NCBI GenBank assembly: GCA_964368085.1
Contig: CAYJBG010000003.1
Location: forward strand, 1 to 49,065
DNA: 49,065 nt
Direction of reading: 5' to 3'
Source of the DNA: an uncultured Acidiferrobacterales bacterium
Lineage (GTDB): Bacteria; Pseudomonadota; Gammaproteobacteria; Acidiferrobacterales; UBA6901
Shown here: piece after piece, positions 26,161 to 47,425 of the stretch
Layout of the letters: each line of letters begins with the position of its first letter
Position numbering within the stretch: the stretch's first letter is position 1
The notes under the pieces: generated by a model
Databases searched by the model: none
Seen by the model: the letters and a program-made list of their open reading frames with translations, nothing else
Told to the model about the DNA's origin: nothing
Translations under genes and position numbers: made by a program

Positions 26161-26273
26161 GGGGAAATCCGGAAAGCCGGCTATCCGTGAAAACACTTCA
26201 TACCTTCTACTATTATCATTTAGAAAATAGCATTCCACACGATGCGAACGCCAACACAGACACCGTCATCGGC

Positions 26274-29117: not shown

Positions 29118-29207
29118 GCACCTCCACGTGTTTCGCTCCGGCGCGCGGAGTGAATGAGTCTTCATTCACTAACGGAAACCAGCGTGCCACGACGGCACGC
29201 ACCGACT

Positions 29208-29507: not shown

Positions 29508-29544
29508 GCGGCCGTTATACCCGCTCGCGTTGCGCGCGGCAAGC

Positions 29545-30252
29545 TCAGCGGCGCGGCGCACCCGACCACCAGCGCACACTCGCGCCGAGCGGGGCGCGCC
29601 CGAGGCGCGGCTGCAACCAATAACGCAGCACCACCAGACTGATCGCCACCGCGATGAGCGCGGCGACCAACGCATCGCTTGGGTAGTGTTTGGCAAGCGC
29701 CAGTCGGCTCAGGGCGAGTGCGCCGGCCCAGAGCAGGCACAGGCCAGCGGCCCACGGGTTGCGAAACAGGAGCGCGGCGAACAGCGTGCTGATCACAATG
29801 TCGGCGCTGTGGCCGGAGGGAAACGAGTGATGCGCCGCGTCCCAGCTGAAACCGGCCCACTCGCTGCCGAAGTCCGGCAACGGCGTGGCATCCGGGCGGG
29901 CGCGACCAAACGTCATCTTCAATATGCGCACAATCAACACGCTGCCCAGGAATTGCGCGAGCAGATAACCCTGCGCGAGAAGTTTCAGACCGGGTTCGCG
30001 GCGATACCAGCCCCAGGCGAACAGCGCGAGGAACAGGATATAGAAAGGGTACAGGCCGTAGTTGGTAAACGCGCGCAGGAACGCGTAATGCTCTTGCGTC
30101 CAGGCCGCGCGGTGCACGAGTGCGACACTGCCGCTGTCGCCGTACACCAGCGCGAGCAGCAGACCGAGCACAGCGAGTGTGGCAAATGCGGCCGTCACGA
30201 ACTGCAGGCGGCGGGTGAGCGGTGCGAACTTCGGTTTCGCGCGGCGCGGCAT
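29545..30252 (-). CDS. PAP2-family lipid phosphatase
   Basis: All three acid-phosphatase motifs are present: KMTFGRARP, FPSGHS and SRLALAKHYPSD. The protein is multi-TM. Confidence 0.85.
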   Translation of the reverse strand: MPRRAKPKFAPLTRRLQFVTAAFATLAVLGLLLALVYGDSGSVALVHRAAWTQEHYAFLRAFTNYGLYPFYILFLALFAWGWYRREPGLKLLAQGYLLAQFLGSVLIVRILKMTFGRARPDATPLPDFGSEWAGFSWDAAHHSFPSGHSADIVISTLFAALLFRNPWAAGLCLLWAGALALSRLALAKHYPSDALVAALIAVAISLVVLRYWLQPRLGRAPLGASVRWWSGAPRR

Positions 30253-30312
30253 GGGCGGAAACTATACCACAGGCACTCTTTCCGAATGATGCACTCAGTG
30301 GCAGGCACGGCA

Positions 30313-30545
30313 GCGAAACCGCAAACGGGCCGTCCCTCGGCAACTGCTCCCGGCGTTGCTCTCGACCGCTTGTTCCCGACGCGGTCTACCGCCTCCATCC
30401 CTGGAGGCGTACCTCCTGCATCCATGCAGTCGTGGCCCGCGGCCCTCGAACACGTGCCCCTGACGTCCCGCCTAAAACATCTCCCATCGGCGAAACCGCA
30501 AACGGGCCTTCCCTGGCCCGCGGCCCTCGCCTCGATCCCATCGGC
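30313..30545. repeat. Composite REP/MITE-like repeat region between divergent PAP2 genes
   Basis: Direct repeats: GCGAAACCGCAAACGGGCC at 30313-331 and 30490-508; TGGCCCGCGGCCCTCG at 30433-448 and 30514-529. Hairpins: CCTCCA-tccc-TGGAGG (30392-407) and CTGCAT-cc-ATGCAG (30416-429). Confidence 0.65.
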
Positions 30546-30552
30546 GAATGCT

Positions 30553-31266
30553 ATGATGCCGTTCACGAACACCATCACGGCGCCTTTCATGTCTGCCCTG
30601 CTCCGCCGCCATCTCGATCTGTTGCTGCTTTTCGCTATCGGCGTGCTGCTGGTGGCCTTCCCCCGGATCGATATTGCCTTCGCCGGTCTGTTCTATGACC
30701 CCTTCGACGGCTTTTACTTGCGCGAGAATCCGTTCGTGCGTCTTGTCTTCAATGGCGTGTCGTGGATTACGCGCACCGTGGTCGTGAGTCTCGTGCTGTT
30801 CCTGCTCGCCGCCTGGACGATCCGGAGGCGGCACAGGTTTTTTTCGCGTCAACGGCGCGCCGCGCTTTATCTGTTGCTGGTCATGATCATCGGACCGGGC
30901 CTGCTGGTGAACACGGTATTCAAGGATCAGTGGGGGCGCGCGCGCCCGTCGCAGATCGAGGAATTCGGCGGCACCAAACAATTCACGCGCGCCGCCATCC
31001 CCGCCGACCAGTGCGAAAAAAACTGCTCATTCGTGAGCGGCCATGCCTCGGTGGGCTTCTTCTTTCTGTCATTCTCTTTCGTCTGGCCGCGCCGCCGGGT
31101 TCTCTGGTTTGCCGCAGGCGCCGGCCTTGGGCTCGGCATCGGCCTGGTGCGCATGATGCAGGGCGGGCATTTCATCAGTGACGTGATCTTTTGTGGCATC
31201 GTCGTCTATCTCAGCGCGCGTGGCCTGTACGCGCTGATGTTCGCGCCGGCTGAACCCCGCTCCTGA
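30553..31266 (+). CDS. PAP2-family lipid phosphatase (second copy, divergent)
   Basis: 237 aa from the ATG at 30553, which is only the C-terminal part of the 648-aa track ORF. Motifs are KDQWGRARP, VSGHAS and VRMMQGGHFISD. Confidence 0.85.
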   Translation: MMPFTNTITAPFMSALLRRHLDLLLLFAIGVLLVAFPRIDIAFAGLFYDPFDGFYLRENPFVRLVFNGVSWITRTVVVSLVLFLLAAWTIRRRHRFFSRQRRAALYLLLVMIIGPGLLVNTVFKDQWGRARPSQIEEFGGTKQFTRAAIPADQCEKNCSFVSGHASVGFFFLSFSFVWPRRRVLWFAAGAGLGLGIGLVRMMQGGHFISDVIFCGIVVYLSARGLYALMFAPAEPRS

Positions 31267-31418
31267 TTCGCGTCCATAGACGATTTTATCGGGCGCAAAC
31301 CTCCCACGGTGAAACCCAGCGAAGGGGCTGAACCTCCCCGTTGGAAGCGCAACAGGCATCGCCTGTTATCCCTTGCCCCGGCTTGGCCCACCTTGTTTTC
31401 CCGCTATCATTAGGATGG

Positions 31419-34400
31419 ATGCCCACGCGTCGAACACCCAAACCACGGGCCACGGCCCGGCCCGCGAAACTCTCCCCGCCCCGGCTTGGGGCGATCCAGC
31501 CGCGCCCGCGACTCTTCAAGCTCCTCGACCGGGAACGAAAACACCCCATCGTGTGGATCGAAGCCCCGGCCGGGGCCGGCAAGACCACGCTTGCCGCAAG
31601 TTACCTCATCGCGCGCCGGTTGCGAACACTCTGGTATCAGATCGACACCCGCGACGCCGACCCGGCGGCATTCTTCTATTATCTTCGGCTGGCGGTCCAA
31701 AAGATTTCACCGCGCAAGACCGAGATACTCCCGCTGCTCACGCCGGAGCACTACGCCGGACTTGCGGTGTTTACGCGAAATTTCTTCGAGGAAATCGCGC
31801 GGCGCCTACCGTCGTCCACCGCGATCGTGTTCGACAACTATCAGGACGTTCCAGAGAACGCGCCGCTGCACGCGCTCCTCGCCGAGGCGGTCACAGCACT
31901 CCCACGCGGCATCTCCCTGATCGTGCTGAGCCGCGCCGAGCCACCGCCCGCCTTTGCCCGGCTTCGCGCTCACGGCGAAATCGCGCGGCTCGGCTGGGAC
32001 GAGGTCCGGCTGACGCGCGCCGAACTCGCCGGCTTCGTGCGCGCACACCGTACCCGGCTCTCGAGCGGTGCGCTCAACCGGCTGTACGAGCGCACCGACG
32101 GCTGGGCCGCCGGCGTGCGCGTGGTGCTTGAGAGCGGCAGTGACGCGGAAGCGCGCGCCAGTGAGTCGCTGTTCGACTACTTCGCCGCCGAGATTCTGCG
32201 ACACGCCGAACCGGCGTTGCGTGAATTTCTGTTCTCAACCGCGCTGCTGCCACAGATCACGGTGTCCGCCGCCGAGGCGTTGACCGACAACCACGGCTCC
32301 GCGCGCATCCTCGCCGACCTTACGCGCCGCAATTTCTTCACCGTGCGCCGCACCGGGCCGGAGACGGCGTACGAGTACCACCCGCTGTTTCGAGAATACC
32401 TGCTGCACGCCGCGGCGGCGCACCACGGGCACGAGGCCTGGGTCACACTCAAGCGCCGGACCGCAACGCTCCTCATCGCCGACAATCAGTTCGAGCACGC
32501 CGCGCGACTCATGCACGAGGCGGGTGATACTCCGGGCCTCGCCGAGATCATCGCCGCCCAGGCCACCACGTTCGCCGCCCAGGGGCGGCTTCAGACCCTC
32601 GAATACTGGCTGCGGGCACTGCCGGCCGAAACACTCGAACACTCCGGCTGGCTCAGCTACTGGTTCGGCATCTGTAGGCTGCCGTTCGACTTGATCGAGG
32701 CGCGCGCGCACCTGGAGCGCGCCTACGCCGGGTTCCAGCAGACCGATGATTCGCCCGGGTTATACCTCGCTTGGGCGGGGGTCGTGGAGACGTTCTTCTA
32801 TCAATGGGACGATTACGCGCCGCTCGATCGCTGGCTCGACGAACTTGAGAGACTGCGGCAGACGCATCCGCTGGATCGCTGCGCGCAGGTGCAACCGCGC
32901 GTGGTCTATGCGGCGTTGAGCGCGCTTGGCTTTATTGGCACCGGCCGCCCCGAGCTAAGTGTTTGGGTGCAGGCGGGCGAGACGCTGCTCACGACCTTGC
33001 ACGACCCGAACCTGCGCGTGCTGCTCGCCGCGGCGCTGTGCCTGCACTGCGTGTGGATCGGCGACCTCGAAAAGCTCGACGTAATCGCGACGCAGTTGCG
33101 CACGCAGTTGAAGGGCGCGGAACTCGCACCGGTGGCGCATTTTCACGGCTATTTCGCACTCGCCGAGCACGGCTGGATCACCGGCGACGTCGTGCAAGGC
33201 GAACGCTGGCTGCGCGCGGGCTTCGCCTACGGTGAGCGCCTTGGCATCCGCATGTTCGAGCCGCTGTTGTGCGGGCAGGCGCTGTATCTCTACGAAGTCA
33301 ACGGCGACGAAGATGCCGTGGCCCGCACACTCGAACGCATGCGCCGGGCGCTCGACCCGCGCCGCCGTCTCGATCTCGCACATTACCGTTACCACGCGAC
33401 CTGGCTCGCGCTCGCGCGGGGCGAGGCGCGCCGGGCACGCGACCTCGCCGAGCAATCACTCGCGCTCGCCGAGTTGTTGTTCGCCCGCTTTCCGATCGCG
33501 CTCAACCGCATTCGATTGGCCGAGACGTTGGTGGAGCTCGCGGAATTCGCGGACGCCCACCGGCACCTCGACGCGGCCGGGACAATCGCCGCACGCATGG
33601 GCAGCGAATTGCTTCGATTCATGACTGGACTGGTGCGCGCCTGGGCGTGGCATCGGGCCGGATGTACGGAGGAGGCCGGCCGAACGCTCGCGGCGACCTT
33701 CGCTCTCGGACAACGCCTGGGCTATCGCGCCTACCCGGGCTGGAACGGCAAGATCGTCGCGGCGCTGTGCGCGCAGGCGCTCGCGCGCGGCATCGAACCC
33801 GACTACGCCCGCCGCCTGATTCGCGAACGCGGGCTGGTGCCGCCGGACAATGCCGGCGATATCGACACCTGGCCCTGGCCGGTCAAGGTCTACGCCCTCG
33901 GATGCTTCGACGTGCGCGTTGACGAACGCCCGCTGCCTGCGCGCGGCAAGCAGCAGCGCAAACCGCTCGATCTGGCGAAACTCCTGGTGAGCGCCGGACC
34001 GCGCGGCCTGTCCACGGAACAGGCGATCGAAACGCTGTGGCCGGAGCAGAACCAGGAACGCTCTTATCAATCGTACTCCATGGCGCTGCACCGGCTCCGC
34101 AAGCGGCTGGGTACGGACGAGTGTATCCTCGCCCAGGATGGCCGCGTGCTCCTGAACCCGCGCCGTGTCTGGGTCGATGCCTGGGCCTTTGAGCAGACGT
34201 TCGCGCCGCGCGCCGACACCAGCGCCACCGCGCGGCTCGAGCGCGCAGTAGCGCTCTACAAAGGAGCGTTTCTGGGCGAAGCCACAGCCGAACCCTGGGG
34301 CCTGGCTTATGCCGAGCGGCTTTATAGTAAGTATCTGCGCGCGGTGCTGGAGCTGGGTCAGCACCGGCAGAAGGAAGGCGCCTTCGAGCGCGCCATCGAG

Positions 34401-34601
34401 CTCTACCAGAACGCTCTCGAACACGACGACTTGCAGGAATCCCTCTACCAGCGCCTGCTCGTCTGTTACGGCGAAACCGGTCGCCGCGCCGACGGGCAGC
34501 GCGCCTACGAACGCTGCCGCAAGTGCCTGCAAGAGGCGCTCGGCGTCAGCCCCTCGGCGCAGACCGAAACACTAAGGGCGCGGTTGCTCAAGACGCAGTA
34601 A
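31419..34601 (+). CDS. STAND-type ATPase with helical/TPR-like middle and a C-terminal SARP module (OmpR-type winged helix + BTAD), 1060 aa
   Basis: The N-terminus is MalT-like (LSPPRLGAIQPRPRLFKLL...WIEAPAGAGKTTLAASYL is Walker A, about 31563-31589; AIVFDNYQDV is Walker B-like). A long helical repeat region follows. The C-terminus from about 33880 reads VKVYALGCFDVRVDERPL...KPLDLAKLLV...LSTEQAIETLWP...LHRLRKRLG (wHTH) and then ALYKGAFLGE...YLRAVLELGQ...AIELYQNALEHDDLQESLYQRLLVCY...GRRADGQRAYERCRKCLQEALGVSPSAQTETL (BTAD). Confidence 0.8.
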   Translation: MPTRRTPKPRATARPAKLSPPRLGAIQPRPRLFKLLDRERKHPIVWIEAPAGAGKTTLAASYLIARRLRTLWYQIDTRDADPAAFFYYLRLAVQKISPRKTEILPLLTPEHYAGLAVFTRNFFEEIARRLPSSTAIVFDNYQDVPENAPLHALLAEAVTALPRGISLIVLSRAEPPPAFARLRAHGEIARLGWDEVRLTRAELAGFVRAHRTRLSSGALNRLYERTDGWAAGVRVVLESGSDAEARASESLFDYFAAEILRHAEPALREFLFSTALLPQITVSAAEALTDNHGSARILADLTRRNFFTVRRTGPETAYEYHPLFREYLLHAAAAHHGHEAWVTLKRRTATLLIADNQFEHAARLMHEAGDTPGLAEIIAAQATTFAAQGRLQTLEYWLRALPAETLEHSGWLSYWFGICRLPFDLIEARAHLERAYAGFQQTDDSPGLYLAWAGVVETFFYQWDDYAPLDRWLDELERLRQTHPLDRCAQVQPRVVYAALSALGFIGTGRPELSVWVQAGETLLTTLHDPNLRVLLAAALCLHCVWIGDLEKLDVIATQLRTQLKGAELAPVAHFHGYFALAEHGWITGDVVQGERWLRAGFAYGERLGIRMFEPLLCGQALYLYEVNGDEDAVARTLERMRRALDPRRRLDLAHYRYHATWLALARGEARRARDLAEQSLALAELLFARFPIALNRIRLAETLVELAEFADAHRHLDAAGTIAARMGSELLRFMTGLVRAWAWHRAGCTEEAGRTLAATFALGQRLGYRAYPGWNGKIVAALCAQALARGIEPDYARRLIRERGLVPPDNAGDIDTWPWPVKVYALGCFDVRVDERPLPARGKQQRKPLDLAKLLVSAGPRGLSTEQAIETLWPEQNQERSYQSYSMALHRLRKRLGTDECILAQDGRVLLNPRRVWVDAWAFEQTFAPRADTSATARLERAVALYKGAFLGEATAEPWGLAYAERLYSKYLRAVLELGQHRQKEGAFERAIELYQNALEHDDLQESLYQRLLVCYGETGRRADGQRAYERCRKCLQEALGVSPSAQTETLRARLLKTQ

Positions 34602-34734
34602 TCCGGTTTTTCTTCTTCGATACCCATTGCACCGTTGTTCGCGATAGAACCGGTATTACCCTGGTAAAACACTCCCGGGCGCCTGCCAAAACCGTACTGC
34701 CTTGCCCTCATCCACCGATCCTGCTGCTTGAAAA

Positions 34735-34818
34735 CCCCTCTCCCTGTGGGAGAGGGGCAAGGAGTGACGACTGCATGGATGCAGGAGGTGGAACAACGCA
34801 TGGAGCAGTTGCCGAGGG
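34735..34818. repeat. REP-like element; a shorter, inverted copy of the 30334-30433 element, plus a perfect 10-bp hairpin
   Basis: The hairpin is CCCCTCTCCC-tgt-GGGAGAGGGG (34735-757). ACGACTGCATGGATGCAGGAGGT (34767-789) is the exact reverse complement of 30411-30433. GGAGCAGTTGCCGAGGG (34802-818) is the exact reverse complement of 30334-30350. Confidence 0.7.
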
Positions 34819-34935
34819 CTGGGTTTCGGGTCGTGGTCGGTCATTTTCCAGACCCTCTTTAAAGTCTTTCCCGGCGCAAGCAGCCCTCCCCGAATCGGTG
34901 AGTCATCTGTTAACCCACCACTCTACGCTTGGCGC

Positions 34936-35112
34936 ATGGAGAGTTACGTGCTGCGCATCTACCGCCGCGACGGCGAGGGCCGCCTCACCGGGCTCGTGGA
35001 ACGGGTCGAGACCCAGGAACGCCTTGCCTTTCACAGTGCGCGCGAGTTGTGGTCGATCCTGCACAACCACGCGCTGGCGCGCAAAAAGAGCAGGCGCCGG
35101 AAATCCGCCTGA
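34936..35112 (+). CDS. Small ORF (58 aa) absent from the track: MESYVLRIYRRDGEGRLTGLVERVETQERLAFHSARELWSILHNHALARKKSRRRKSA
   Basis: Hand-translated. Third-codon-position G+C is very high (about 85% by my count), like the real genes here. It falls below the 60-aa track cut-off. No obvious SD. Confidence 0.55.
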   Translation: MESYVLRIYRRDGEGRLTGLVERVETQERLAFHSARELWSILHNHALARKKSRRRKSA

Positions 35113-35347
35113 GCGCATGCCGTGAATCTGGGTGGCGGCGTTGGCTGTAAGCCGCAAGTAAACCCGCGTTGCCCGGGATGCGTCTTGCGACAGGGACACG
35201 CGATGGACGCCATGAATCTTGAATACGACAGTGAAACCGGACCAACAACGAAAACGAACAGGAGACGACTATGCATTGCAGGACTTTGGCGGGACAAAAC
35301 GCGCACGCTGTAGCAGCACGTAAGCGCCGGGACAAGACCGCACCGCA

Positions 35348-36025
35348 ATGAACGCGATACCTGCGACTCCGGTTGCCATGTTCTTCAAGGGCATCCCCCT
35401 CTTTGCGGACTTAAGCGATGCCGACCACGGTCTGTTGCTGAAGGTGGCAATGCGTCGCCGTTATCCGCGCCACACGCTGCTCGTCCAGGAAGGCGATGCG
35501 GGCGAGCGCTTCCATCTCCTGCGCCAAGGCCGGGCCAAGGTCTATCTCGGCAATCCCGGGGGTCGCGAGGTGATCCTCGCGATCCTCGGGCCCGGCGACT
35601 TCCTCGGGGAAATGGCGCTGCTCGATGCCGAACCCTGTTCGGCCAATGTCATGACCCTCGAGGAAAGCGAGTTCGTCTCGATCGGCAAGGGCGAATTCCA
35701 GCAGGTGTTGGCCTCGTCCCCGAGCATGGCGGTGAACCTGCTCAAGGCCTTGTCCCAAAGGCTGCGCGAGGCCAACCAGCAGATCGAATCGCTGGCGCTG
35801 AAGGATGTGCAGGCGCGGGTCGAGCAAGCCCTGCGCGGACTCGCCGAACCCGAGGGCGGGGATCTCGTGATCCCGGCACGCCTCACCCACCGCGAGATCG
35901 CCGCCATGGTCGGCGCCTCGCGCGAGATGGTGACTCGGATATTTCGCAGTCTCGAAGAGAGCGGGGTGGTGCGGGTTGAGGGACGGCGCATCACGCTGAC
36001 GCCCCGTGGCCCGGCACAGGCCTGA
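35348..36025 (+). CDS. Crp/Fnr-family transcriptional regulator (cNMP-binding domain + C-terminal HTH)
   Basis: 225 aa. GDFLGEMALLD is a cNMP-binding signature. THREIAAMVGASREMVTRIFRSLEESG is the HTH. There is no N-terminal Cys cluster, so it is not an O2-sensing FNR type. Confidence 0.9.
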   Translation: MNAIPATPVAMFFKGIPLFADLSDADHGLLLKVAMRRRYPRHTLLVQEGDAGERFHLLRQGRAKVYLGNPGGREVILAILGPGDFLGEMALLDAEPCSANVMTLEESEFVSIGKGEFQQVLASSPSMAVNLLKALSQRLREANQQIESLALKDVQARVEQALRGLAEPEGGDLVIPARLTHREIAAMVGASREMVTRIFRSLEESGVVRVEGRRITLTPRGPAQA

Positions 36026-36079
36026 AAAAAGTTACCGCATTGGTGATGCAGATCACCGAACACCGGGATTTTCTCCGGC

Positions 36080-36110
36080 TTCGGTGATTCTCGTCACCGA
36101 ACGGATTTTT
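36080..36110 (+). terminator. Rho-independent terminator after the Crp/Fnr gene
   Basis: TTCGGTGA-ttctcg-TCACCGAA is followed by cggaTTTTT. A second hairpin, GGTGAT-gcag-ATCACC, lies just upstream at 36042-57. Confidence 0.7.
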
Positions 36111-36273
36111 GCCTTTCCCTATTCTCTGGGTTCGTTTCAGGGCACACGAAACGCGGAGGATATGACGAAACCGAAAAGGCGCCGGCCCTGAAACACGCAT
36201 GCCGGGATGAATTTCAAATTTGTCGGTAAAGCAGTTTCCCTAAACTTTGAAAGCGACCAAAAGGTGAATCACG

Positions 36274-36729
36274 ATGAAAACGAACCTGAAACAGAAATTC
36301 CTGCGTACCGTCTTGGGCGGCATGGGGGCCCTGCTGTTGTTGTCCGCCCCGAGTGCCTTTGCCTTTCCCACCACCGGAACCTGCGCGATGTTGGTGACCC
36401 AGCCCGTGCCGTATGGGGCGAGTCTTCCACATTCAACCGGCTATAACATTCTCGCGACGCTGACTTTCACAAGCGCTACGGCCGGCACAGTTGAATATGT
36501 CGGTGCGAGAGCGACTTACGCCACGACCGGAGTCACTGTCGGTACCCCTGAAACCGGAAGCTGGCCATTCACCATCGCGGCAGGCCCCATTGCCGGTTCG
36601 AAGACATTCTCGTTTACCGATACAACCTATGGCTCAACCGTAACCGCCAACATGTACGCCGTGAACGGGGACAGAACCATCCTGGTGCAAGGGGCCAATG
36701 ATCTGTTCAGCGGTGTCTGCCAGTTCTGA
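36274..36729 (+). CDS. Secreted protein of unknown family, 151 aa (mature ~121 aa, predicted all-beta)
   Basis: It has a Sec signal peptide (GGMGALLLLSAPSAFA/FP). Cys residues near both mature termini (TGTCAML ... SGVCQF) could form a disulfide. AAGGTGA is upstream. Its GC3 is lower than that of the surrounding core genes. Confidence 0.7.
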   Translation: MKTNLKQKFLRTVLGGMGALLLLSAPSAFAFPTTGTCAMLVTQPVPYGASLPHSTGYNILATLTFTSATAGTVEYVGARATYATTGVTVGTPETGSWPFTIAAGPIAGSKTFSFTDTTYGSTVTANMYAVNGDRTILVQGANDLFSGVCQF

Positions 36730-36740
36730 GGAGAATCGCC

Positions 36741-36896
36741 ATGAAACCAGTCACCCATTTTGGAATGGCCTTGGCGGTAGCAGCGCTGCTGATCCTGGCC
36801 GGCTGCGGCGGAGGCGGGGGTTCCTCGGCGGCAGCGGCCGACACAACGTCTACCACTTCTTCGGTGGCCGTTACAACTGTTCTAACGACGCAGTAG
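36741..36896 (+). CDS. Small lipoprotein (51 aa) absent from the track: MKPVTHFGMALAVAALLILAGCGGGGGSSAAAADTTSTTSSVAVTTVLTTQ
   Basis: Hand-translated. It has a lipobox (LILAGC). GAGGAG lies 7 nt upstream of the ATG, and the gene starts 11 nt after the previous gene. Confidence 0.55.
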   Translation: MKPVTHFGMALAVAALLILAGCGGGGGSSAAAADTTSTTSSVAVTTVLTTQ

Positions 36897-36945
36897 CCAG
36901 AACGGAATGAGGACAACGCTTGCAACTTTAATGAGGAGAAACGTC

Positions 36946-38664
36946 ATGCAAGAATTCATCTCAACGTATCGGAGATTCTTCACCGCATTGATCGCGTCGT
37001 TGCTCGCGTCGCTCGCCGCCTGCGGTGGCGGTGGTGCGTCGACGCCTCCACCGCCTGCGGCGCCACCCACAGCGTCCTCGGTGATGGCGCTTTATACCAG
37101 TGCCGCGAACTGGAACGACTACTTGCGCAACGACGGCGCGAGCCTATTCCAGGCGAGTAATACTGCTTGCACCGGTACCGAAACCGGCGACCACAACGTC
37201 TGCCTGCACGGCGGTGAGTTGCGCGCCGTGGTTGTGGCCGGACGCAGCAGTTGCGCGGGACTCTCTGCCGCCGACGCGCTCGGCGCCTTCGACTGGACCT
37301 GCGACGCTTCCGTAAACCCGGTACGCGTGGTCTCGGCGGGTTTGAAGCGCAACAAGAATCTTTCGGACCTGATCGACTTTTCCGCGGCGGCCTGGCGCGC
37401 CAACAGCGTGACGGTGAGCGACGGCGCGACGGCGCTGTTTGCCACCCCGTCATCCGCGTGGTGGAGCAACCCCGTGACACTCGCGAACGGCGGCGGCACG
37501 CTCGCCGCCGCCGGCACGACCTATCTCGCCACGGCCAACCCGGATGCCGTCTACACCTTCGGCGCCGACCGCGTGGCGTTCGTGGTGCAACCCGGGATCG
37601 AGATTACCGCGCCCGCGGCCATGCCGCGGGTCGTGTACGGCAGCGCGAAAAACTTTCTCTGGCTCGAAGGCGCAATCCATATTCAGGGCACGAACAGCGG
37701 GATCTCGCTCTTCACGGTCAAGTTCTCGCGCCTGCGCAACGTCGCGATTCGCGGCAGCGGCGGAACTTCCGGTACCGCCGCCCTGGACACCGACGCGTTG
37801 TCCGCGAGCCGGTTACTGCGTGTCACGATCATCAAGTCGGCTCTTTTCGGCGCCTATTTCACCAACGCCGGCGGTAACCTCATCGAGGAGATTGCGGTCG
37901 CGGACAACGCCGATACAGGACTGCGCCTCACCGGAAATCACAACGTGGTTTCTGGAGTGAAGGCCCAGGGCAACGGCGGTTTCGCCGGTATTCTGTACGG
38001 CGGCCCGCAAACCCTCCAGCAGGTCTACGCGGGCGGCAACGCGGGCAGCGGCATCGTCTCCTTTTCCGGCCAGAACAGCCGGGTCAATAACACCACGACC
38101 GTCAATAATGCCAGCGGCGGCCTGAGGCTCGCCAATGACGGCGCCACGGTCTCCGACGCGAGCCTGGTGATCAATCTCGCGAGCGCCAACGACGGCGCCG
38201 GGCTTACGCTCGTCAATACCGCCGGCGCTCCCAGTCCGGCACCGGCGGGCGGCACGTTCGAAAACCTGGCGATCGGCCACGCGGGGGCGATCGGGGTGAC
38301 GCTGCAAAATTCCTCGAACAATCGTTTCACCGGGCTGCTCAAGGTCGGCAACAATCTGACCGATTGCACCGTTACTGGCACCAACCCCGGGCTCGTGACG
38401 ACCACCTGCGCCAACCAGGGCGCCTCGGACGCCGTGCTCACGACGGGCATCGGCCTGGCGGCGAGCATTCCGGGAAAGGTAACGGGCGACGACGCCGTGA
38501 ACACCAGCGACGCCAGCGGGCTCGCCGCCTACGACACGCTCACCGACTGGCTCGGCTTCGCCAACGAGGCGCGCGGCTGGGGGCGCGACGGCAGCGCCTT
38601 CCCCACAACGCCGACCACCGTGGGCGCTGCGCCACCGGCGCGAACTGCCGCATCTGGGACATGA
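36946..38664 (+). CDS. Lipoprotein with a Cys-rich N-terminal region and a right-handed parallel beta-helix-like repeat region (N-terminal 572 aa as annotated)
   Basis: The ATG at 36946 follows GAGGAG. The lipobox is LASLAAC, followed by GGGG. Repeated ~22-25-aa G/N/T/S-rich segments occur (NVAIRGSGG..., NLIEEIAVADNADTGLRLTGNHNVVSGV..., GNAGSGIVSFSGQNSRVNN...NASGGLRLANDGATV...). GC3 collapses for the last ~20 codons, and the coding signal moves to the -1 frame at 38601-38604. Confidence 0.7.
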   Translation: MQEFISTYRRFFTALIASLLASLAACGGGGASTPPPPAAPPTASSVMALYTSAANWNDYLRNDGASLFQASNTACTGTETGDHNVCLHGGELRAVVVAGRSSCAGLSAADALGAFDWTCDASVNPVRVVSAGLKRNKNLSDLIDFSAAAWRANSVTVSDGATALFATPSSAWWSNPVTLANGGGTLAAAGTTYLATANPDAVYTFGADRVAFVVQPGIEITAPAAMPRVVYGSAKNFLWLEGAIHIQGTNSGISLFTVKFSRLRNVAIRGSGGTSGTAALDTDALSASRLLRVTIIKSALFGAYFTNAGGNLIEEIAVADNADTGLRLTGNHNVVSGVKAQGNGGFAGILYGGPQTLQQVYAGGNAGSGIVSFSGQNSRVNNTTTVNNASGGLRLANDGATVSDASLVINLASANDGAGLTLVNTAGAPSPAPAGGTFENLAIGHAGAIGVTLQNSSNNRFTGLLKVGNNLTDCTVTGTNPGLVTTTCANQGASDAVLTTGIGLAASIPGKVTGDDAVNTSDASGLAAYDTLTDWLGFANEARGWGRDGSAFPTTPTTVGAAPPARTAASGT

Positions 38665-39035
38665 GCCTCGCGAGCGCCGATACCGTGGTACGCGGCGTGC
38701 TCCCCAAGTACCTGAACGGCAACGCCGCGAGCACCATTATGCACGTCTGGTCGGTCACGGCGCCGACCAACCAGGCCGACTGTACCGCGGCCGTACCCGG
38801 CTCGGTGTTCTCGGGTGGCGAGTGCCGCAACACCTTCCTGCGCAATGCCGTGGAGATTTTGGGTGACGGGTTCGGCAACGACAACGGCCTGTGCGAGTCG
38901 AACGAGCGCTGCCTGCACACGCCCAACATCGGTGCCTACCAGGGCCACGGCGCGCTGATCTCGGCCGGCGGCTTCACGAACGGCGACACGTTGAGCAGCA
39001 TCGAGCTGCTCGAATACTCGACCAATGGCCGATGA
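38604..39035 (+). CDS. C-terminal continuation of the beta-helix lipoprotein in the -1 frame (alternatively a separate ATGA-coupled 124-aa ORF from 38661)
   Basis: The frame-0 translation is HNADHRGRCATGANCRIWDMSLASADTVVRGVLPKYLNG...CESNERCLHTPNIGAYQGHGALISAGGFTNGDTLSSIELLEYSTNGR*. It has high GC3 from 38604 onward, is Cys-rich like an extracytoplasmic domain, and has no signal peptide of its own. Confidence 0.55.
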   Translation, partial: HNADHRGRCATGANCRIWDMSLASADTVVRGVLPKYLNGNAASTIMHVWSVTAPTNQADCTAAVPGSVFSGGECRNTFLRNAVEILGDGFGNDNGLCESNERCLHTPNIGAYQGHGALISAGGFTNGDTLSSIELLEYSTNGR

Positions 39036-39096
39036 GCGGCCGTGTCGATATTTGCGAACAATACGGTGTTGAAACCGGTGTAAGAGGAGAAACCAA

Positions 39097-40854
39097 ATGC
39101 TGAAGATACCGGCGGTCATCAAAGTCTTGTCCCTGGCCACGCTACTCGCCCTCGCCGCCTGTGGAGGCGGCGGGGGCGGAGGCGGTGGTGGCGCCACGCC
39201 GCCGGTCACCGGCTTTACTAAAAACGTGTCCTTGCCCGTCGCGCCTGCGGGCGACTGGAATCTTTTCTCCTCGGGCGCAGGCTCCAAGCGCTACCAGGCC
39301 CTGGTCCGGGCGCAGGACATTCGAGGCTCCGGCCCGCTGCGGTCGTTGGCGTTCCGGCGCGGCGCGGACTCGATTGGCAACAGTTGTCCGAACGTCACCA
39401 TTAAGCTCGTGCACCGGCCCGTTAGCGCCACACTCGACACCACCTTCGCCAACAACGTCACGCCGGGGCGGGGCGCGGTAACAACCGTGTTCGGCCCAGC
39501 CACGCTCACGATTCCCGCCGAATTTGCTGGCGAGTATTTCACTATCCCCTTGAACGGCGCGTTCAACTACAACGGCGTGGATAACCTGATCGTGGACATC
39601 GAGACCGACGGTTGCAGCGCGAACACCGTGATCGACGCCCGCGATGCGAACCCGGTGTACACCGCGCTGATCTACCACTTTACCGACCGCACGGCGCCCA
39701 CGGGTTCAACCTGGAACAGCCTCGCCGACATGAAGTTCACCTTCGCCGGTGGCGACAACCGGGTGCAGTCTCCCGGCGCCTTGGGTCTCAGCTCCTTTCC
39801 ATTCACTGCGGCAGCCGGGGGAGCCAAAGTCCAACTGCTCTACTACAGCTCCGCATTCACCAGCGATGAAATCGACGGCAGCGGTCCGATTACGGGCATT
39901 GCCTTCCCGATCGCGGGCGGCGCTGGTTTCCCACCCGGCCCAGTGACCGCGCAAACCCATACGGTCACCGTGAAGCTCGGCCACTCGACCCTCACCGCCC
40001 TTACCGACACGTTCGCGAACAATTTCAACAGCGGTGCCCCGGTGACCGTGGCCAATGCCGTGACGTTCGAGATTCCGGCGGGTGTGCCGGCCGGACGATA
40101 CCTTTGGGCGCCGCTGCCGGACGGAACATTCAACTACAACGGTACGGACAATCTCATCGTCGAGATCGAGGCGAGCGCCGCACCGGCATTCACCTGGACG
40201 ACCACGCATGAAGATACGCTGAGCCAGCGACGGCTCTCGGCCTCTTCGGGTGCGACGACCGGGATGCTGGACAGAATCGTGAACGACATCCAACTGCGCT
40301 TCGCCGGCGGCGGCATGGACGCGATCACTCCAGACGCGATGTCGGGCGGCCTCTCGGATTCTTTCCCGTTTGCCAACATCAACGGGAAGCGCCAATTCCT
40401 GTATCGCGCCGCAGAACTCGGCACCCGGGGAACGATCTCGAAAATCGCGTGCCGCACCAACACGGGCGGTCCGAGCACGACTGGCTTCAACTACTCAGTG
40501 GTACTGAGCCACAGCACGGCGTCCACTCTGGACACCAGCTTCGCTACTAACTTGGTGAGCCCGGTAACGGTGTTCAGCGGTACATTCAACCTGCCGGCGA
40601 TGGTCGCCGGCGATTGGATCGAGATCCCCTTGACGACGCCATTCGCCTACAACGGTCGACACAACTTGGTGCTGGAAATCGGCGGTACCGGTGGAGAATC
40701 GGGTGGCGGGATTTTTTCGGACAGGTTTGCGTGCGCACGCGATGACGCAAGCACCGCGCTTTACGCCGGACGCCGGTTGTTCGGTGCAACATCGACTGAC
40801 GCCACGGGCTCCGTAAGCAACTCGATGATCGACACGCGCTTCACGTTGCAATGA
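39097..40854 (+). CDS. Lipoprotein composed of three tandem copies of a ~180-aa module of unknown family, 585 aa
   Basis: The lipobox is LLALAAC, followed by poly-Gly. Conserved blocks recur three times: TFANN / TFANN / SFATN at aa 116, 305 and 481; F(N/A)YNG..NL(I/V)(V/L)(D/E)I at aa 156, 345 and 516; and a module end of (K/R)F(T)(F/L) at aa 213, 401 and 581. Confidence 0.8.
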   Translation: MLKIPAVIKVLSLATLLALAACGGGGGGGGGGATPPVTGFTKNVSLPVAPAGDWNLFSSGAGSKRYQALVRAQDIRGSGPLRSLAFRRGADSIGNSCPNVTIKLVHRPVSATLDTTFANNVTPGRGAVTTVFGPATLTIPAEFAGEYFTIPLNGAFNYNGVDNLIVDIETDGCSANTVIDARDANPVYTALIYHFTDRTAPTGSTWNSLADMKFTFAGGDNRVQSPGALGLSSFPFTAAAGGAKVQLLYYSSAFTSDEIDGSGPITGIAFPIAGGAGFPPGPVTAQTHTVTVKLGHSTLTALTDTFANNFNSGAPVTVANAVTFEIPAGVPAGRYLWAPLPDGTFNYNGTDNLIVEIEASAAPAFTWTTTHEDTLSQRRLSASSGATTGMLDRIVNDIQLRFAGGGMDAITPDAMSGGLSDSFPFANINGKRQFLYRAAELGTRGTISKIACRTNTGGPSTTGFNYSVVLSHSTASTLDTSFATNLVSPVTVFSGTFNLPAMVAGDWIEIPLTTPFAYNGRHNLVLEIGGTGGESGGGIFSDRFACARDDASTALYAGRRLFGATSTDATGSVSNSMIDTRFTLQ

Positions 40855-41199
40855 CGGTGTTCGTCAATCGCGGCGAAACAATGCAGACTGGCCGAGGTCC
40901 GGTGCCAAAAGCACGGAAGGCTGCATCGCCCGGCGCTATCCGCACGCCGATCGTGGCAAGGTTGGAATCGTGCAAAACTGTATATGCGCCGCGGCTTCTA
41001 TAGCATCGACTCGCGGCGGGCGGGTCTGTTGCAACGACCCAGGTACACCATGGAGGGGCATGAGTGAGGTGCATTTACTGCAGTCGTTCTTTACAACAGT
41101 GGAGCGGTTCAGGCAATCGGCATAGACCCACCATTTTCATGGACGACGGCAAGGGTGCGTTTCTAATATAGTGGTGCGGAAATCCGCTCCCATCACACC

Positions 41200-43278
41200 A
41201 TGACCGCCTCCACAAAATTCACCAACGCGCTGGCGCAAGAAACCAGTCCGTATCTTCTTCAACACGCGCACAACCCGGTGGACTGGCAACCGTGGAATGC
41301 CGAAGCGCTGCAACGCGCGCGCCGCGAGGACAAACCGATTCTGCTGTCGATCGGTTACTCGGCCTGCCACTGGTGTCACGTGATGGCGCACGAATCGTTC
41401 GAGGACGAAGCCACCGCGCAGGTGATGAACGAGTTGTTCGTCAATATTAAAGTCGACCGCGAGGAGCGTCCCGACCTCGACCGCATTTACCAGACCGCGC
41501 ATCAAATGCTCGCGCAGCGCGCGGGCGGCTGGCCGCTCACCATGTTTCTCATGCCCGACGATCACACGCCGTTCTTCGGTGGCACCTATTTTCCGAAGGA
41601 GCCGCGTTTTGGGCTGCCGGCGTTTACCGATTTGTGCCGGCGCATCGCCACTTACTACCGCGAGAGCCGCGTTGAAATCACGCAACAGAATGCCGCAGTG
41701 CGTGAGAACTTCCGGCGCTTGGCGGCCGGCGGTTCGCCTGCGGGCGTGCAGATCACCGATGGCGTGCTGACACGGGCACGCAAAGAGATCGCCGACCAGT
41801 TTGAGCCTAAACACGGCGGCTTCGGTCAGGCGCCCAAGTTTCCGCACCCGACCACCATCGAGCGATTGCTGCGCCACTGGGCGGCGCATCCGGACGACAA
41901 CGAGGCCCTGCACATGGCGCGCTTCAGCCTGCACGCTATGGCCGCGGGCGGCGTCTACGACCAGCTGGGCGGCGGCTTCTGCCGCTACTCGGTGGACGAT
42001 TACTGGATGATCCCGCACTTCGAAAAAATGTTGTACGACAACGGCCAGTTGATGGCACTGTATGCCGATGCCGCGCTCGCCACCGGCGATGCCGCCTTCA
42101 AGCGAGTGGCGCTCGAAACCGCCGAGTGGGTGATGCGCGAAATGCAGTCGCCTGAAGGTGGTTACTATTCGGCGCTCGACGCTGATTCAGAAGGCGAAGA
42201 AGGAAAATTCTACGTTTGGACACCGGACGCGGTGCGGGCGCTGCTCAGTGCCGACGAATACAAACTGTTCGCACCGGTGTACGGCCTCGACCGCCCGCCC
42301 AACTTCGAGAACCATGCCTGGAATCCGTACATTTTTCAGGCTCCCGAAGACGTGGCGCGCAAGCTTGTTATGGATGCCGCTACCGTCACGCCACTGCTGG
42401 CGAGCGCGCGCCGCAAACTCTTCGTCGCGCGCGAACAACGCGTGCGCCCCGGCCGCGACGACAAGGTGCTCGCCTCTTGGAACGGACTCATGATCAAGGG
42501 CATGGCGCGCACCGGCCGGCTGCTCGGGCGTGCCGACTTTATCGCCTCGGCCGAGCGCGCCTTCGATTTTCTGCGTGCACAAATGTGGAAGAACGACCGG
42601 TTGCTCGCTTCCTATAAGGATGGGCGCGCGCACCTTAACGCCTACCTGGATGACTATGCGTTCCTGATCGACGGCGGACTGGAACTTCTGCAGGCGCGCT
42701 GGCGCGACGGCGATCTCGCGTTTCTCATCGAGCTGGCCGAAGCCCTGCTCGACCGCTTCGAGGACAAGACCGGCGGCGGCTTCTTCTTCACCTCTGACGA
42801 TCATGAGCAACTCATCCATCGGCCGAAGCCAGCGGGCGACGAGGCCATCCCCTCCGGTAACGGCATCGCCGCACAAACGCTGCTGCGCCTCGGCCACCTG
42901 CTCGGTACGGCCCATTATCTGGATGCCGCGCACAACGCGCTGGCCGTGCTGTACCGCGATATTCAACATTACCCGTCGGGACACAACGCATTGCTGGCGG
43001 CAGTTGAGGAATATCTTTATCCCACTCAAACTATCGTGCTGCGCGGCGATATTCAGGCCATGCAGCCGTGGTTGGCGCGTTGCACGCGGCATTACGCGCC
43101 GCGCCGCCTGACGCTCGCGATTCCAAACGATGCGAAGGAACTACCGGGGATCTTGGTGCAGCGCGCCGGTAAAGATGCCGTGACTGCCTATGTGTGCACC
43201 GGCTACGCCTGCCAGGCGCCGGTAACGGAATTCATGCAACTGGAAACGGTGCTCGCCGCGACCGAGGCATCCCGCTAG
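41200..43278 (+). CDS. Thioredoxin-domain protein of the YyaL/DUF255 family (Trx-like N-domain + six-hairpin (alpha/alpha)6 domain)
   Basis: 692 aa. [54 protein letters not shown] is the hallmark DUF255 N-terminus. Confidence 0.85.
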
Positions 43279-44832: not shown

Positions 44833-45780
44833 TCAACGTGCGATCTGGATCACAATCTTGCCGACGGTCCTGCCCTGTTGGCTGTAGGCATGGGCCGCCG
44901 CCAGCTCATTGAGATCAAAGGTACGATCGATCATCGGACGCAGCTTGCTGGCTTCGCACAACCGGGACAGCTCCTCAAGATCGGCACCGCGTGGCTTCAC
45001 CCCCGCGATGCGCACCCGCCGCCGCGATACAAACGGCAACAGAAATGCGGCCGCGATACGACTGGCGGAGGGCAGGCTGGTCACATAGATACCATCTGCA
45101 GCGAGCAGCGCGAGGTGCGGTCGCAGCGGTGAATGTGCAATAAAATCGAGCACCAGATCATACGGCTGCGGACCGCGCAGGTCTGACGTTTGGGTGTAAT
45201 CGATGGTGCGGCCGGCGCCGAGGCGGCGCACAAGCTCCGCATTACGGCCGCTGCACACCGCCGTGACCTCGGCTCCGTAACTCTTGGCGATTTGCACGGC
45301 GAGGTGGCCGACGCCGCCGGAGGCGCCGATGATCAGCACCCGCTTGCCGGACGCGATCCGGCCGAGATCGCGCAGACACTGCAACGCGGTGAGACCGGCG
45401 AGCGGCATCGCCGCCGCCTCTTGCGGCGTCAGGTTCGCGGGCATGCGCGCCGCGGCCTGTTCACCGACCGCTGCGTATTCGGCACTGGTTCCGCCGGGAC
45501 GGCGGTCGAGCATCGCGAAGATGCGATCGCCTGGCTTGAAGCGCGTAACGTGCCCGCCGGTCCCGGTCACCTCGCCGGCAAGATCGAAACCGGGGATCGA
45601 TGGAAAGCGCACCGGCATGATGCGGCGGTACTGGCCGTTGTGCAGCTTCCAGTCCACCGGGTTCACCGATGTCGACAGCACCCGCACCAGCAACTGCGTC
45701 GGCCCCGGGCGCGGCGTCGGCACTTCGGCCGGTTGCAACTGGTCCGGCGTACCGTAATCGCGGTATTGCATCGCCTTCAT
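44833..45780 (-). CDS. NAD(P)H-dependent quinone oxidoreductase / medium-chain dehydrogenase-reductase family protein
   Basis: 315 aa. LLVRVLSTSVNPVDWK and VLIIGASGGVGHLAVQIAK (Rossmann) are Qor-like, zinc-free MDR motifs. Confidence 0.85.
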   Translation of the reverse strand: MKAMQYRDYGTPDQLQPAEVPTPRPGPTQLLVRVLSTSVNPVDWKLHNGQYRRIMPVRFPSIPGFDLAGEVTGTGGHVTRFKPGDRIFAMLDRRPGGTSAEYAAVGEQAAARMPANLTPQEAAAMPLAGLTALQCLRDLGRIASGKRVLIIGASGGVGHLAVQIAKSYGAEVTAVCSGRNAELVRRLGAGRTIDYTQTSDLRGPQPYDLVLDFIAHSPLRPHLALLAADGIYVTSLPSASRIAAAFLLPFVSRRRVRIAGVKPRGADLEELSRLCEASKLRPMIDRTFDLNELAAAHAYSQQGRTVGKIVIQIAR

Positions 45781-45808
45781 GAACAGCGTCCTCTCTGGAT
45801 GGCAGTCA

Positions 45809-45835
45809 GTAGGGTGGGGCCCTGCCCCACCCTAC
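45809..45835. other. Perfect 12-bp GC-rich hairpin, GTAGGGTGGGGC-cct-GCCCCACCCTAC
   Basis: Read directly. It lies 3 nt downstream of the gcvPB stop and 28 nt upstream of the qor-like start. There is no U tract on the minus-strand transcript. Confidence 0.5.
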
Positions 45836-45838
45836 ACT

Positions 45839-47296
45839 TTAAGAAGAAGCGCGCTTCCAGGTGAGGTCCAGTTCGCGCGCCGCCTTGACGTCGTCGAGAC
45901 GCTTGACCGGCAGGGTGTGCGGCGCGCCCTTCACCATGTCCGGCATGGTGCGCGCCTCGTGGGCGATCTCTTCCATGGCCTTGATGAAGCCGTCCAGTTC
46001 TTCCCTGGTTTCAGTCTCGGTCGGTTCGATCAGGAAGCATTCCGGAACGAGCAGCGGGAAGTAGGTGGTCGGGGCGTGGTAGCCCTTGTCGAGCAGGCGC
46101 TTGGCGAAGTCCATGGCGCTGATGCCGGTTTCATCCTTCAGCTTCTTGAGCGTGACGATGAATTCGTGCGTGGCGCGGCGTTTCGGGAACGCAAGATCGA
46201 AACCGCGTTTCTTCAGTTCCGCCAGCATGTAATTGGCGTTGAGCGTGGAGAATTCGGCAACGCGTTGCATGCCTTCACGCCCAAGCAGGCGTGCATAAAT
46301 ATAGGCGCGCAACAGCACCCCGGCATTGCCGAGATGTGCGGACAGGCGGCCGATGGTCTGCGGCTTGTCCTTCTCGGTGAGCAGGTAATAACTGCCGTCC
46401 TTGTTGCGCTCGACAATCGGCACCGGCAGGAACGGCAGCAGTCGTTCGTTCACGCCCACCGGGCCGGCGCCCGGACCGCCGCCGCCGTGCGGCGTGGAGA
46501 AGGTCTTGTGCAGGTTCATGTGGATGACATCGAAACCCATATCGCCCGGTTTCACCTTGCCGAGAATTGCATTCAGGTTCGCGCCGTCGTAATACAGCAA
46601 TCCGCCGGCATCGTGCACCGCCTTCTGCACCTGCTGGATGTCCTTCTCGAACACACCGAGCGTGGACGGGTTGGTAAGCATGAGGCCGGCGGTGTGCGGG
46701 CCGACCGCGGCCTTGAGCAACTCGAGATCGATATCGCCGTTGGCGTCGGTCGGAATCTCGTGCACCGTGTAACCGCACATCACCGCGGTCGCCGGGTTGG
46801 TGCCGTGCGCCGCATCCGGCACCAGAATCTCGGTGCGCGCCGCGTCGCCGCGCGCGTCGTGGTAGGCGCGGATCATGGCGACGCCGGCGAACTCGCCCTG
46901 CGCGCCGGCCATGGGCGTGAGCGACACGGCCTTCATGCCGGTGACTTCCTTGAGCATCTCCTGCAGTTCGTACATGCAGGCGAGAAAGCCCTGGCCTGTG
47001 GATGCGGGCGCGGCCGGATGCCGGCCGAGGAATTGCGGCAGCATGGCGAGCGAGTTGCAGGCGCGCGGGTTGTACTTCATGGTGCACGAGCCGAGCGGAT
47101 AGAACTGGGTGTCAATCGAGAAGTTCTTCTGCGACAGACGCGTGTAGTGACGCACCGCCTGCATCTCCGACACCTCCGGCAGCAACGGGCGTTTGCTGCG
47201 CCGCAGGTTGGCCGGGATGTCCTGCACCTCGGTCTTGACGAGCGGCGCTTGCGAATAGTTGCGGCGGCCGGGTTGAGAGTGTTCAAAAATCAGCAT
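45839..47296 (-). CDS. gcvPB: Glycine dehydrogenase (aminomethyl-transferring) subunit 2
   Basis: 485 aa. [18 protein letters not shown]..., the PLP-Lys region [16 protein letters not shown] and the overall sequence are typical of GcvPB. Confidence 0.92.
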
Positions 47297-47336
47297 GTTG
47301 CCTTACCTGTTCGAGTCGTTGAACCTGGTTTGCTGC

Positions 47337-47410
47337 CGGAGCGATTCCGCCACTACGCGGCGGAATCACTCCGCAATTATTTCTTTGCGTCCTTTGCGTC
47401 TTTGCGGCAG
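47337..47410. repeat. 15-bp-stem hairpin plus a REP-like TTTGCGTC-unit element
   Basis: CGGAGCGATTCCGCC (47337-51) pairs with GGCGGAATCACTCCG (47359-73), with one mismatch. AATTATTTCTTTGCGTCCTTTGCGTCTTTGCGGCAG (47375-410) is a near-identical inverted copy of 23026-23060. Confidence 0.6.
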
Positions 47411-47425
47411 AAACGCATACAAGTC

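Follow-up and report, generated by a model that had tools for sequence, protein, structure and literature searches.

The closest described counterpart of the regulatory genes considered here is the AfsR-afsS system of Streptomyces. SARP-type regulators bind direct repeats overlapping the -35 position, and AfsR activates the small gene afsS (PMC11301090). The locus analysed here lies in a 49,065-nucleotide (nt) stretch of contig CAYJBG010000003.1 from an uncultured Acidiferrobacterales bacterium, called the window below, where a STAND NTPase regulator, a small gene and a Crp-family regulator precede a block of five exported-protein genes, g1-g5 (36274-40854). It has in common with AfsR-afsS a large STAND ATPase carrying a BTAD domain, here next to a putative OmpR-type winged helix-turn-helix (wHTH), as well as a protein of about 60 aa as the immediate, here predicted, target (PMC11301090 for both). 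The direct repeats of the predicted target promoter are also one helical turn apart (11-bp spacing), over the -35 position and near the -10. However, the domain order is inverted here, with the SARP part at the C-terminus, after a MalT-like winged helix and tetratricopeptide repeats; the genes downstream are exported proteins or a Crp regulator and not antibiotic clusters; and the hosts are Gram-negative groundwater and sediment bacteria. On the side of the exported products, the nearest described proteins are the eight-stranded lipocalin/calycin barrels for g1, the beta-helix proteins for g3 and proteins of the type IX secretion system (T9SS) for g5.

We suggest, with a probability of roughly 0.6, that three exported-protein units, each inherited independently, lie side by side downstream of a regulatory module, so that the block is a mosaic and not one co-evolved system. 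Loci that carry all five genes are confined to one aquifer population and are 100% identical, and the set is conserved in no other genome. None of g1-g4 was found within 10 kb of the roughly 26 full-length g5 loci known from elsewhere (Sulfurimonas, Smithellaceae, Nitrospiria, Leptospirales, Holophaga and other Acidiferrobacterales). Homologues of g3 stand in other contexts, without g1, g2 or g5, and g3-g5 are absent from all five g1-g2 contexts outside the window, where the pair stands by itself or beside other genes. The first-pass annotation had proposed one operon encoding an undescribed system; this is not supported, as no genome outside the identical same-population copies keeps the gene set, an outcome which that annotation had named as refuting. 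The newest element, apparently undescribed, lies just outside 36274-40854 and consists of the STAND-SARP regulator, the promoter with its repeats and the small protein. The cluster itself is an exported-protein mosaic with one gene broken, with the g1-g2 cassette and with a large unmodelled g5 family. The features are as follows.

31341-34601, + strand: STAND NTPase regulator with C-terminal putative OmpR-type wHTH and BTAD (SARP-like) output, 1086 aa (in public assemblies, start 31419 and 1060 aa)
34893-34913, + strand: two direct 11-bp repeats (AATCGGTGAGT CATCTGTTAA-), predicted STAND-BTAD binding site
34924-34929, + strand: -10-like hexamer TACGCT, 6 nt before the ATG of the small gene
34936-35112, + strand: small gene between the STAND and Crp genes, for a 58-aa cytoplasmic protein (MESYVLRIYRR...LTGLVERVE...FHSARELWSIL)
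35348-36025, + strand: Crp-family regulator (cNMP-binding, PF00027, E 2.8e-24; HTH_Crp_2, PF13545, E 5.8e-13)
36042-36057 and 36083-36098, + strand: two exact CRP-type palindromes GGTGA-N6-TCACC, 41 bp apart, between Crp and g1
36232-36905, + strand: g1-g2 cassette, a transferable two-gene unit of about 675 nt, going by its nucleotide matches to loci L020, L019 and L018
36274-36729, + strand: g1, 151 aa
36741-36896, + strand: g2, 51 aa
36946-38664, + strand: g3, 572 aa counted from an internal ATG
38601-38604, + strand: run of four C in g3, one base short of the homologues (TTC CCC [C]AC AAC), the site of a -1 frame change that joins g3 to g4
38661-39035, + strand: g4, 124 aa, with an ATGA overlap with g3
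39097-40854, + strand: g5, 585 aa

The five open reading frames (ORFs) are co-directional, with gaps of 11, 49, -4 and 61 nt from g1 to g5, and the coordinates agree with the gaps of 11, 49 and 61 nt given earlier. Lipoboxes, defined as [LVI][ASTVI][GAS]C at the end of the signal peptide and read from the sequence, are followed by poly-Gly in g2 (LAGC-GGGGG), g3 (LAAC-GGGG) and g5 (LAAC-GGGGGGGGGG). Together with the Sec signal of g1, these three lipobox-CGGGG starts bear out the envelope or extracellular destination claimed for the products, and the extra 51-aa lipoprotein proposed at the same time is g2, an ORF at 36741-36896 with its lipobox LAGC. The ribosome-binding site GAGGAG, reported for two genes, lies upstream of three, namely g2, g3 and g5. 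The GC content at third codon positions (GC3) is 0.68 in g1 and 0.64 in g2 versus 0.82 +/- 0.06 in 12 other window ORFs, which confirms the lower value noted for the first two genes. The same five gene calls and an identical cluster sequence are present in six public assemblies, five of which represent the Hainich groundwater well H51 and its sequencing runs, and one another run. Pfam and NCBIfam give no above-threshold model for g1, g2, g4 or g5, and PDB sequence searches, in which profiles of g1 and g5 and one g3 homologue served as queries, returned nothing meaningful. The statement that no product belongs to a characterised family stands for these four genes and fails for g3, a Beta_helix (PF13229) protein, although this recognised family says little about function.

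The g1-g2 cassette

The nucleotide identity of the cassette is 86.7% to positions 9959-10637 of L020, 75% to L019 and 71% to L018. In L020 the match sits between mnmA and a DoxX gene, and the rest of this 18-kb locus has no window match; neither have L018 and L019 outside the cassette. A g2-like ORF lies directly 3' of the g1 homologue in 6/6 independent contexts. These comparisons show g1 and g2 to be a discrete, self-contained and, judging from the matches, horizontally moving cassette, in which g2 is, by gene order, the obligate partner of g1. A transferable cassette explains the low GC3 of both genes. The acquisition suggested in the first-pass annotation is likewise supported by a discrete unit with an 87% nt-identical copy in an unrelated neighbourhood. 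A search around g1-g2 for mobile-element repeats gave no convincing terminal repeats or attC-like site.

The product of g1 has a Sec-type leader (MKTNLKQKFLRTVLGGMGALLLLSAPSAFA/FP). Its 67 homologues are about 150 aa long and 46-95% identical, and none has a Pfam domain; in an alignment of 33 homologues Cys37, Cys149 and the C-terminal GVCQF are invariant. The AlphaFold2 (AF2) model, with pLDDT 86 overall and >88 in the mature part, contains nine strands joined by short hairpins. Hence, g1 is predicted to be a nine-strand meander beta-barrel, closed by a Cys37-Cys149 disulfide. The product of g2 is a mini-lipoprotein, in which the lipobox LAGC is followed by a Gly linker, a Ser/Thr-rich part and a conserved tail ...TTSSVAVTTVLTTQ (...VTTVLTTQ).

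As modelled, g1 resembles the lipocalin/calycin eight-stranded barrels (Blc, retinol-binding protein (RBP)) in being a small, exported, disulfide-stabilised up-and-down barrel. Foldseek gives weak matches to barrels of the RBP, lipocalin and OmpA types (TM 0.38-0.46, E >= 0.02). However, g1 stays at TM of about 0.4 with E >= 0.02 and has no GxW signature: the best values in the lipocalin/calycin test are TM 0.38-0.43 and E >= 0.02, and GxW is absent in strand 1 (TGTCAMLV). Moreover, g1 itself is no lipoprotein, and is paired with a separate mini-lipoprotein.

The porin C-terminal signal of substrates of the beta-barrel assembly machinery (BAM) ends in Phe, and the invariant terminal GVCQF resembles such a signal. 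This raises the alternative that g1 is a very small outer-membrane beta-barrel and g2 its lipoprotein partner. The strand hydrophobics alternate with Thr/Ser/Gly, there are only about 9 charged residues, and one of the best structures found by Foldseek is the transmembrane domain of OmpA (TMq 0.46, TMt 0.50). However, the mature protein has just 121 residues and 4/9 predicted strands are 4-8 residues long, which is below membrane-spanning length. The soluble barrels of the lipocalin/RBP type match equally well, and a disulfide between the first and the last strand is unusual for outer-membrane barrels. We consider such a pair unlikely.

In L018 (Nitrospirota; 4819-5742) and in the closely similar L019 (99-1022) g1-g2 follows a gene for a 307-aa DUF1565/Pel9A-like beta-helix lipoprotein, for which NCBIfam gives a resemblance to the Leptospira LIC10774 surface proteins at E 3e-26, short of the cut-off. 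A second 151-aa protein adjoining g1-g2 in these two loci was considered as a g1 paralogue and is not one.

The beta-helix gene g3/g4 and the jelly-roll lipoprotein g5

The likeness of g3 to the beta-helix proteins (PF13229; NosD-like PF05048) is above the Pfam threshold for Beta_helix PF13229 (40.9 bits versus a cut-off of 25.9, E 2e-10). Against NosD PF05048 it scores 22.4 bits, below the threshold of 23.6, and there are no nos genes nearby. It differs from these proteins in its Cys-rich N-terminal and g4 domains, which have no model, in the lack of an assignable catalytic family and in the frameshift of the gene. The 105 other homologues of g3 span 494-1001 aa, nearly all being longer than 600 aa, and are annotated as 'right-handed parallel beta-helix repeat-containing protein'.

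The product of g4 shares 49-66% identity with the C-terminal ~124 residues in three g3 homologues (P0127, P0131 and P0122), and tblastn with the same proteins places a frame switch between 38604 and 38625. This alignment and the frame switch show g3 and g4 to be a single gene for a right-handed beta-helix lipoprotein, which a 1-nt deletion has truncated or inactivated. Accordingly, g4 is the C-terminal domain of the g3 family and no gene of its own. A fifth C at 38601-38604 would restore ...FPHNAD..., and the sequence of the frameshift is identical in the six assemblies. The lipoprotein of '570/696 aa' described earlier does have beta-helix repeats; its ambiguous size reflects a real frameshift, with g4 as the C-terminal domain of g3 homologues. 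A programmed frameshift was considered and rejected, since there is no canonical slippery heptamer, the intact homologues are single-frame and the 'start' Met of g4 is not conserved; we treat the break as a probable mutation. The reading frame of g4 is open from 38364 and its GC3 is host-like (0.89), which makes us regard the break as recent.

The fixation of the frameshift in all six assemblies, the complete lack of g3/g4 in a relative (L022) and the failure of a scan of 34500-41300 to find a sigma-70-like promoter would fit a decaying remnant, that is, accessory genes heading for loss with no current function. However, three of the genes (g1, g2 and g5) are intact; identity to homologues in other loci reaches 64-95% for g1 and g5 and about 73-75% for g2; and g4 retains the GC3 and the open frame just described. 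Hence, we hold decay of the whole cluster to be quite unlikely.

The same relative indicates how the mosaic could have been assembled. At 776-1496 of L022, an Acidiferrobacterales metagenome-assembled genome (MAG), the g5 orthologue opens with a g3-type upstream region and signal peptide. This segment aligns to window positions 36920-37036 (81% nt identity) and then to the g5 body at 39153-39758, and the junction of the fusion is the lipobox/poly-Gly coding repeat. Because the g3 leader and the g5 body meet at this very repeat, we suggest that the cluster has been reshuffled by recombination between repeats. Recombination at the lipobox/poly-Gly would have removed the g3 body, g4 and the g5 leader, or would have inserted them in the window lineage. 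More generally, the junction suggests that recombination at these repeats may shuffle lipoprotein bodies behind shared leaders.

The opposite view is that g1-g5 work and are inherited together, as parts of a single envelope system, as yet undescribed, that would handle polymers or mediate adhesion. The tight co-directional spacing, the similar ribosome-binding sites, the lipobox-polyGly leaders and the export of every product speak for it, and so does the fact that g1-g2 has a beta-helix surface protein as its neighbour twice independently, once in the window and once, with DUF1565, in L018/L019. However, the full set is confined to 100%-identical copies from one population, each unit is found without the others in many genomes, g3 is frameshifted, and L022 has g5 without g3/g4. 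The lack of co-occurrence largely refutes a single system, which we regard as improbable, and we keep to the mosaic of three units.

The last of these units is g5, a triple jelly-roll lipoprotein of a large family, which usually stands alone or in other company. The three module copies described in the first-pass annotation align with each other by pairwise BLASTP (E 7e-18 to 7e-12, 33-40% identity) and share the motifs KLGHT and F-YNG-DNL. The protein search gives 246 homologues, and among the 120 listed almost all are without a Pfam domain; genome searches add 338 hits in many phyla. The lipobox Cys is kept in at least 90% of the homologues, and the closest genome representative is an Acidiferrobacterales MAG with 64% identity. 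The AF2 model has pLDDT 90.3 and pTM 0.87. Its Foldseek matches in the PDB are domain-level and of jelly-roll or carbohydrate-binding-module type, including weak ones to neuropilin b1b2 (E 4e-3) and to the carbohydrate esterase 7toh (probability 0.97), with TM values of 0.16-0.23; in BFVD they are phage tail-fibre proteins (best E 7e-9).

In Flavobacterium and Bacteroidales the module also forms the N-terminal domain of T9SS proteins, and there, too, it is without a Pfam model. These proteins share the g5 motifs ...SQQIY..EI...G.I..I.F, LGHT and PF.YNG.DNL and are extracellular too. However, they carry the domain once or in many tandem copies, together with fn3, MAM, PKD and Por_Secre_tail, whereas g5 has exactly three copies behind a lipobox. 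In another locus, L047 (7719-12570), a two-module g5 paralogue followed by GspC-/GspD-like type II secretion genes lies next to a Crp-g5 pair. That g5, and perhaps g3, are receptor-binding or tail-fibre proteins derived from a prophage, as the best viral Foldseek matches of g5 to phage fibre and minor-tail proteins (E 7e-9 to 1e-4) might suggest, is extremely unlikely, because TM-scores do not exceed 0.26 in these domain-level matches, both genes carry lipoboxes, no phage genes, integrase or tRNA genes were identified in the window, and the g5 homologues examined stand in ordinary chromosomal contexts, e.g. in Sulfurimonas.

The STAND-BTAD module and the Crp regulator

In the STAND protein Pfam finds BTAD at residues 946-1083 (E 6e-21), a weak NPHP3_N P-loop at 62-198 and a weak Trans_reg_C at 873-926 (18.9 bits versus a cut-off of 26.2); WHD_MalT is precomputed for the same gene in public assemblies. 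The predicted wHTH-BTAD part occupies residues 873-1083 of 1086 and follows the P-loop and MalT-like parts.

The tandem repeats between this gene and the small gene are conserved. Allowing at most two mismatches, 42/68 non-redundant loci carry the motif ATYNGTRAGNNATYNGTRAG ahead of the small gene, compared with about 0.08 in shuffles. The consensus is GAATCnGTrAG / AATCyGTrAG, with TAnnnT about 11 nt after the second repeat; its three fixed letters are conserved in 38/42 (T), 41/42 (A) and 41/42 (T) cases. In the window the motif has a single occurrence, at 34893-34913. The Rfam search of 34500-41300 gave 0 matches, so that no known RNA accounts for the conserved element. The position of TACGCT, 6 nt before the ATG, implies a candidate leaderless or nearly leaderless mRNA.

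The codon-position entropy of 0.45/0.04/1.46 identifies the small gene as protein-coding. A scan of metagenome contigs from three sequences confirmed 384 relatives, which form at least 135 clusters at 50% identity, are nearly all 55-90 aa long and have the consensus SY[IV]VRIYRR...IVG.VE...F...ELW.IL. There is no Pfam or NCBIfam model for this protein. It is not known to resemble AfsS in sequence.

The loci with a small gene analysed here are L101-L180, besides L008, L014, L016, L022 and L033. Among those with enough upstream sequence, 42/58 have the C-terminus of a STAND-BTAD protein ending within 700 nt upstream on the same strand. The small-gene homologue lies directly 3' of STAND-BTAD genes in L008, L014 and L016 and downstream of the STAND gene in L022, and in L033 it directly precedes a g5 homologue. 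Signal-peptide or lipobox N-termini are present in about 42/59 of the ORFs downstream of the small gene. This cargo is diverse, and includes PEP-CTERM-like and Lcl_C/DUF1566-type proteins. In profile searches of 80 small-gene loci for g1, g3 and g5 as cargo, one g3-type and no g1 or g5 was found.

L008 and L016/L017 contain two to three STAND-BTAD paralogues per 20 kb, which alternate with small genes and exported proteins (FG-GAP, 5'-nucleotidase C, phage-collar-like and no-Pfam proteins) and look like module arrays. One cargo family of about 205-237 aa (L126, L134, L149 and L166) ends in VPVPAA-hydrophobic-RRR or in PEP-type C-terminal sorting signals. Judging from these termini, some modules appear to control exosortase-type substrates.

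In the literature on a described STAND-BTAD/exported-protein module we found the AfsR work only. Tentatively, and at somewhat less than even odds, we propose that a MalT-like STAND ATPase with C-terminal SARP output, a two-repeat promoter, a conserved cytoplasmic protein of about 60 aa and variable exported cargo form a widespread undescribed module. Bacteria of groundwater and sediment, among them Nitrospirota and Acidiferrobacterales, would use it to switch on interchangeable surface-protein sets. As a part of this module, g1-g2 would represent a novel surface unit of two components, a barrel held by a mini-lipoprotein via strand addition, and the cargo would be shuffled by lipobox/poly-Gly recombination.

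The second regulator stands between the small gene and g1. The first-pass annotation placed the cluster downstream of Crp/Fnr and STAND-SARP genes; the Crp-family and BTAD domains are there, and the Fnr part of the label falls away, since the translation contains a single Cys and lacks the FNR-type N-terminal Cys cluster. L145 has a 76%-identical copy of this regulator in the same position after STAND and small gene, with a box (GGTGATCCATGTCAC) similar to those of the window 17 nt after it. Exact GGTGA-N6-TCACC occurs 3 times in the window versus 0.03 expected. The third copy, at 6216-6231, is inside or near the DctP ORF 5895-6905. The palindrome segment 36042-36098 carries a 25-nt direct repeat, D2. 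It also overlaps a strong RNA fold (36027-36110; -39 kcal/mol, z = -5.25), and the terminator scan finds a terminator-like hairpin at 36080-36101, followed by a T-run (U5 in RNA), about 160 nt before g1. The strong terminator noted there earlier is thus present as a hairpin with a T-run, which also holds an exact CRP-like palindrome, and the segment could serve as an operator, whether or not it also terminates transcription. In L047 a Crp homologue lies directly upstream of a g5 homologue. We consider a regulatory link of g1-g5 to the upstream regulators plausible.

Farther upstream in the window, the 648-aa ORF at 29320-31266 is probably an over-extension; public calls have two divergent PAP2 phosphatase genes there, at about 29545-30252 (-) and 30553-31266 (+). 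A PMT_2/ArnT-like glycosyltransferase is encoded at 24379-26238 (-). At E <= 1e-5 Pfam finds nothing in two further ORFs, 27918-29165 (-, 415 aa) and 45779-47614 (+, 611 aa).

Proposed path from the regulators to the cell surface

Step 1: The STAND-BTAD protein would bind the two 11-bp repeats at 34893-34913, which overlap the -35 position of the promoter. The promoter at 34893-34929 would then drive the 58-aa protein together with the Crp-type regulator.

Step 2: The Crp-type regulator may act on the two GGTGA-N6-TCACC boxes before g1-g5, thus passing the signal on to the exported-protein genes.

Step 3: The products of g1-g5 would be outward-facing binding proteins, as their predicted beta-helix and jelly-rolls resemble phage fibres and T9SS adhesins. 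We suggest that g2 tethers the g1 barrel to the membrane via its conserved C-terminal strand. Together, g1-g5 might then supply a variable set of surface proteins, induced under certain conditions, by which the cell attaches to polymers, to particles or to other cells. Surface binding and the tethering of g1 by g2 are read from fold class and gene pairing only.

Several points weigh against the mosaic under cascade control as drawn here. The six assemblies that carry the cluster all represent one population, which leaves no near relatives for a comparison of operon status. Because the STAND-type repeats are absent upstream of g1, g3 and g5, the connection between the STAND protein and the cluster depends on a cascade that we infer, as we do every functional step of the scheme. 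L047 has no CRP-type box between its Crp and g5 homologues. The CRP-like boxes of the window also form a strong hairpin with a U-run and may simply be the terminator of the Crp gene. Finally, the binding role is a guess from fold class, since the matches are weak (TM <= 0.46 for g1, domain-level for g5).

For the mosaic reading, the locus also carries a caution: tight spacing and shared leaders gave independent genes the look of one system. Three families for which Pfam and NCBIfam have no model, those of the g1-g2 pair, of the g5 module and of the small protein, have dozens to hundreds of members each and are worth modelling. The upstream module offers a defined DNA motif and a defined small protein. 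If this module is as we infer, it would extend the AfsR-afsS logic beyond the control of antibiotics in actinomycetes: an NLR-like sensor, acting through tandem repeats on a small adjacent gene, would control surface proteomes in several uncultured Gram-negative phyla.

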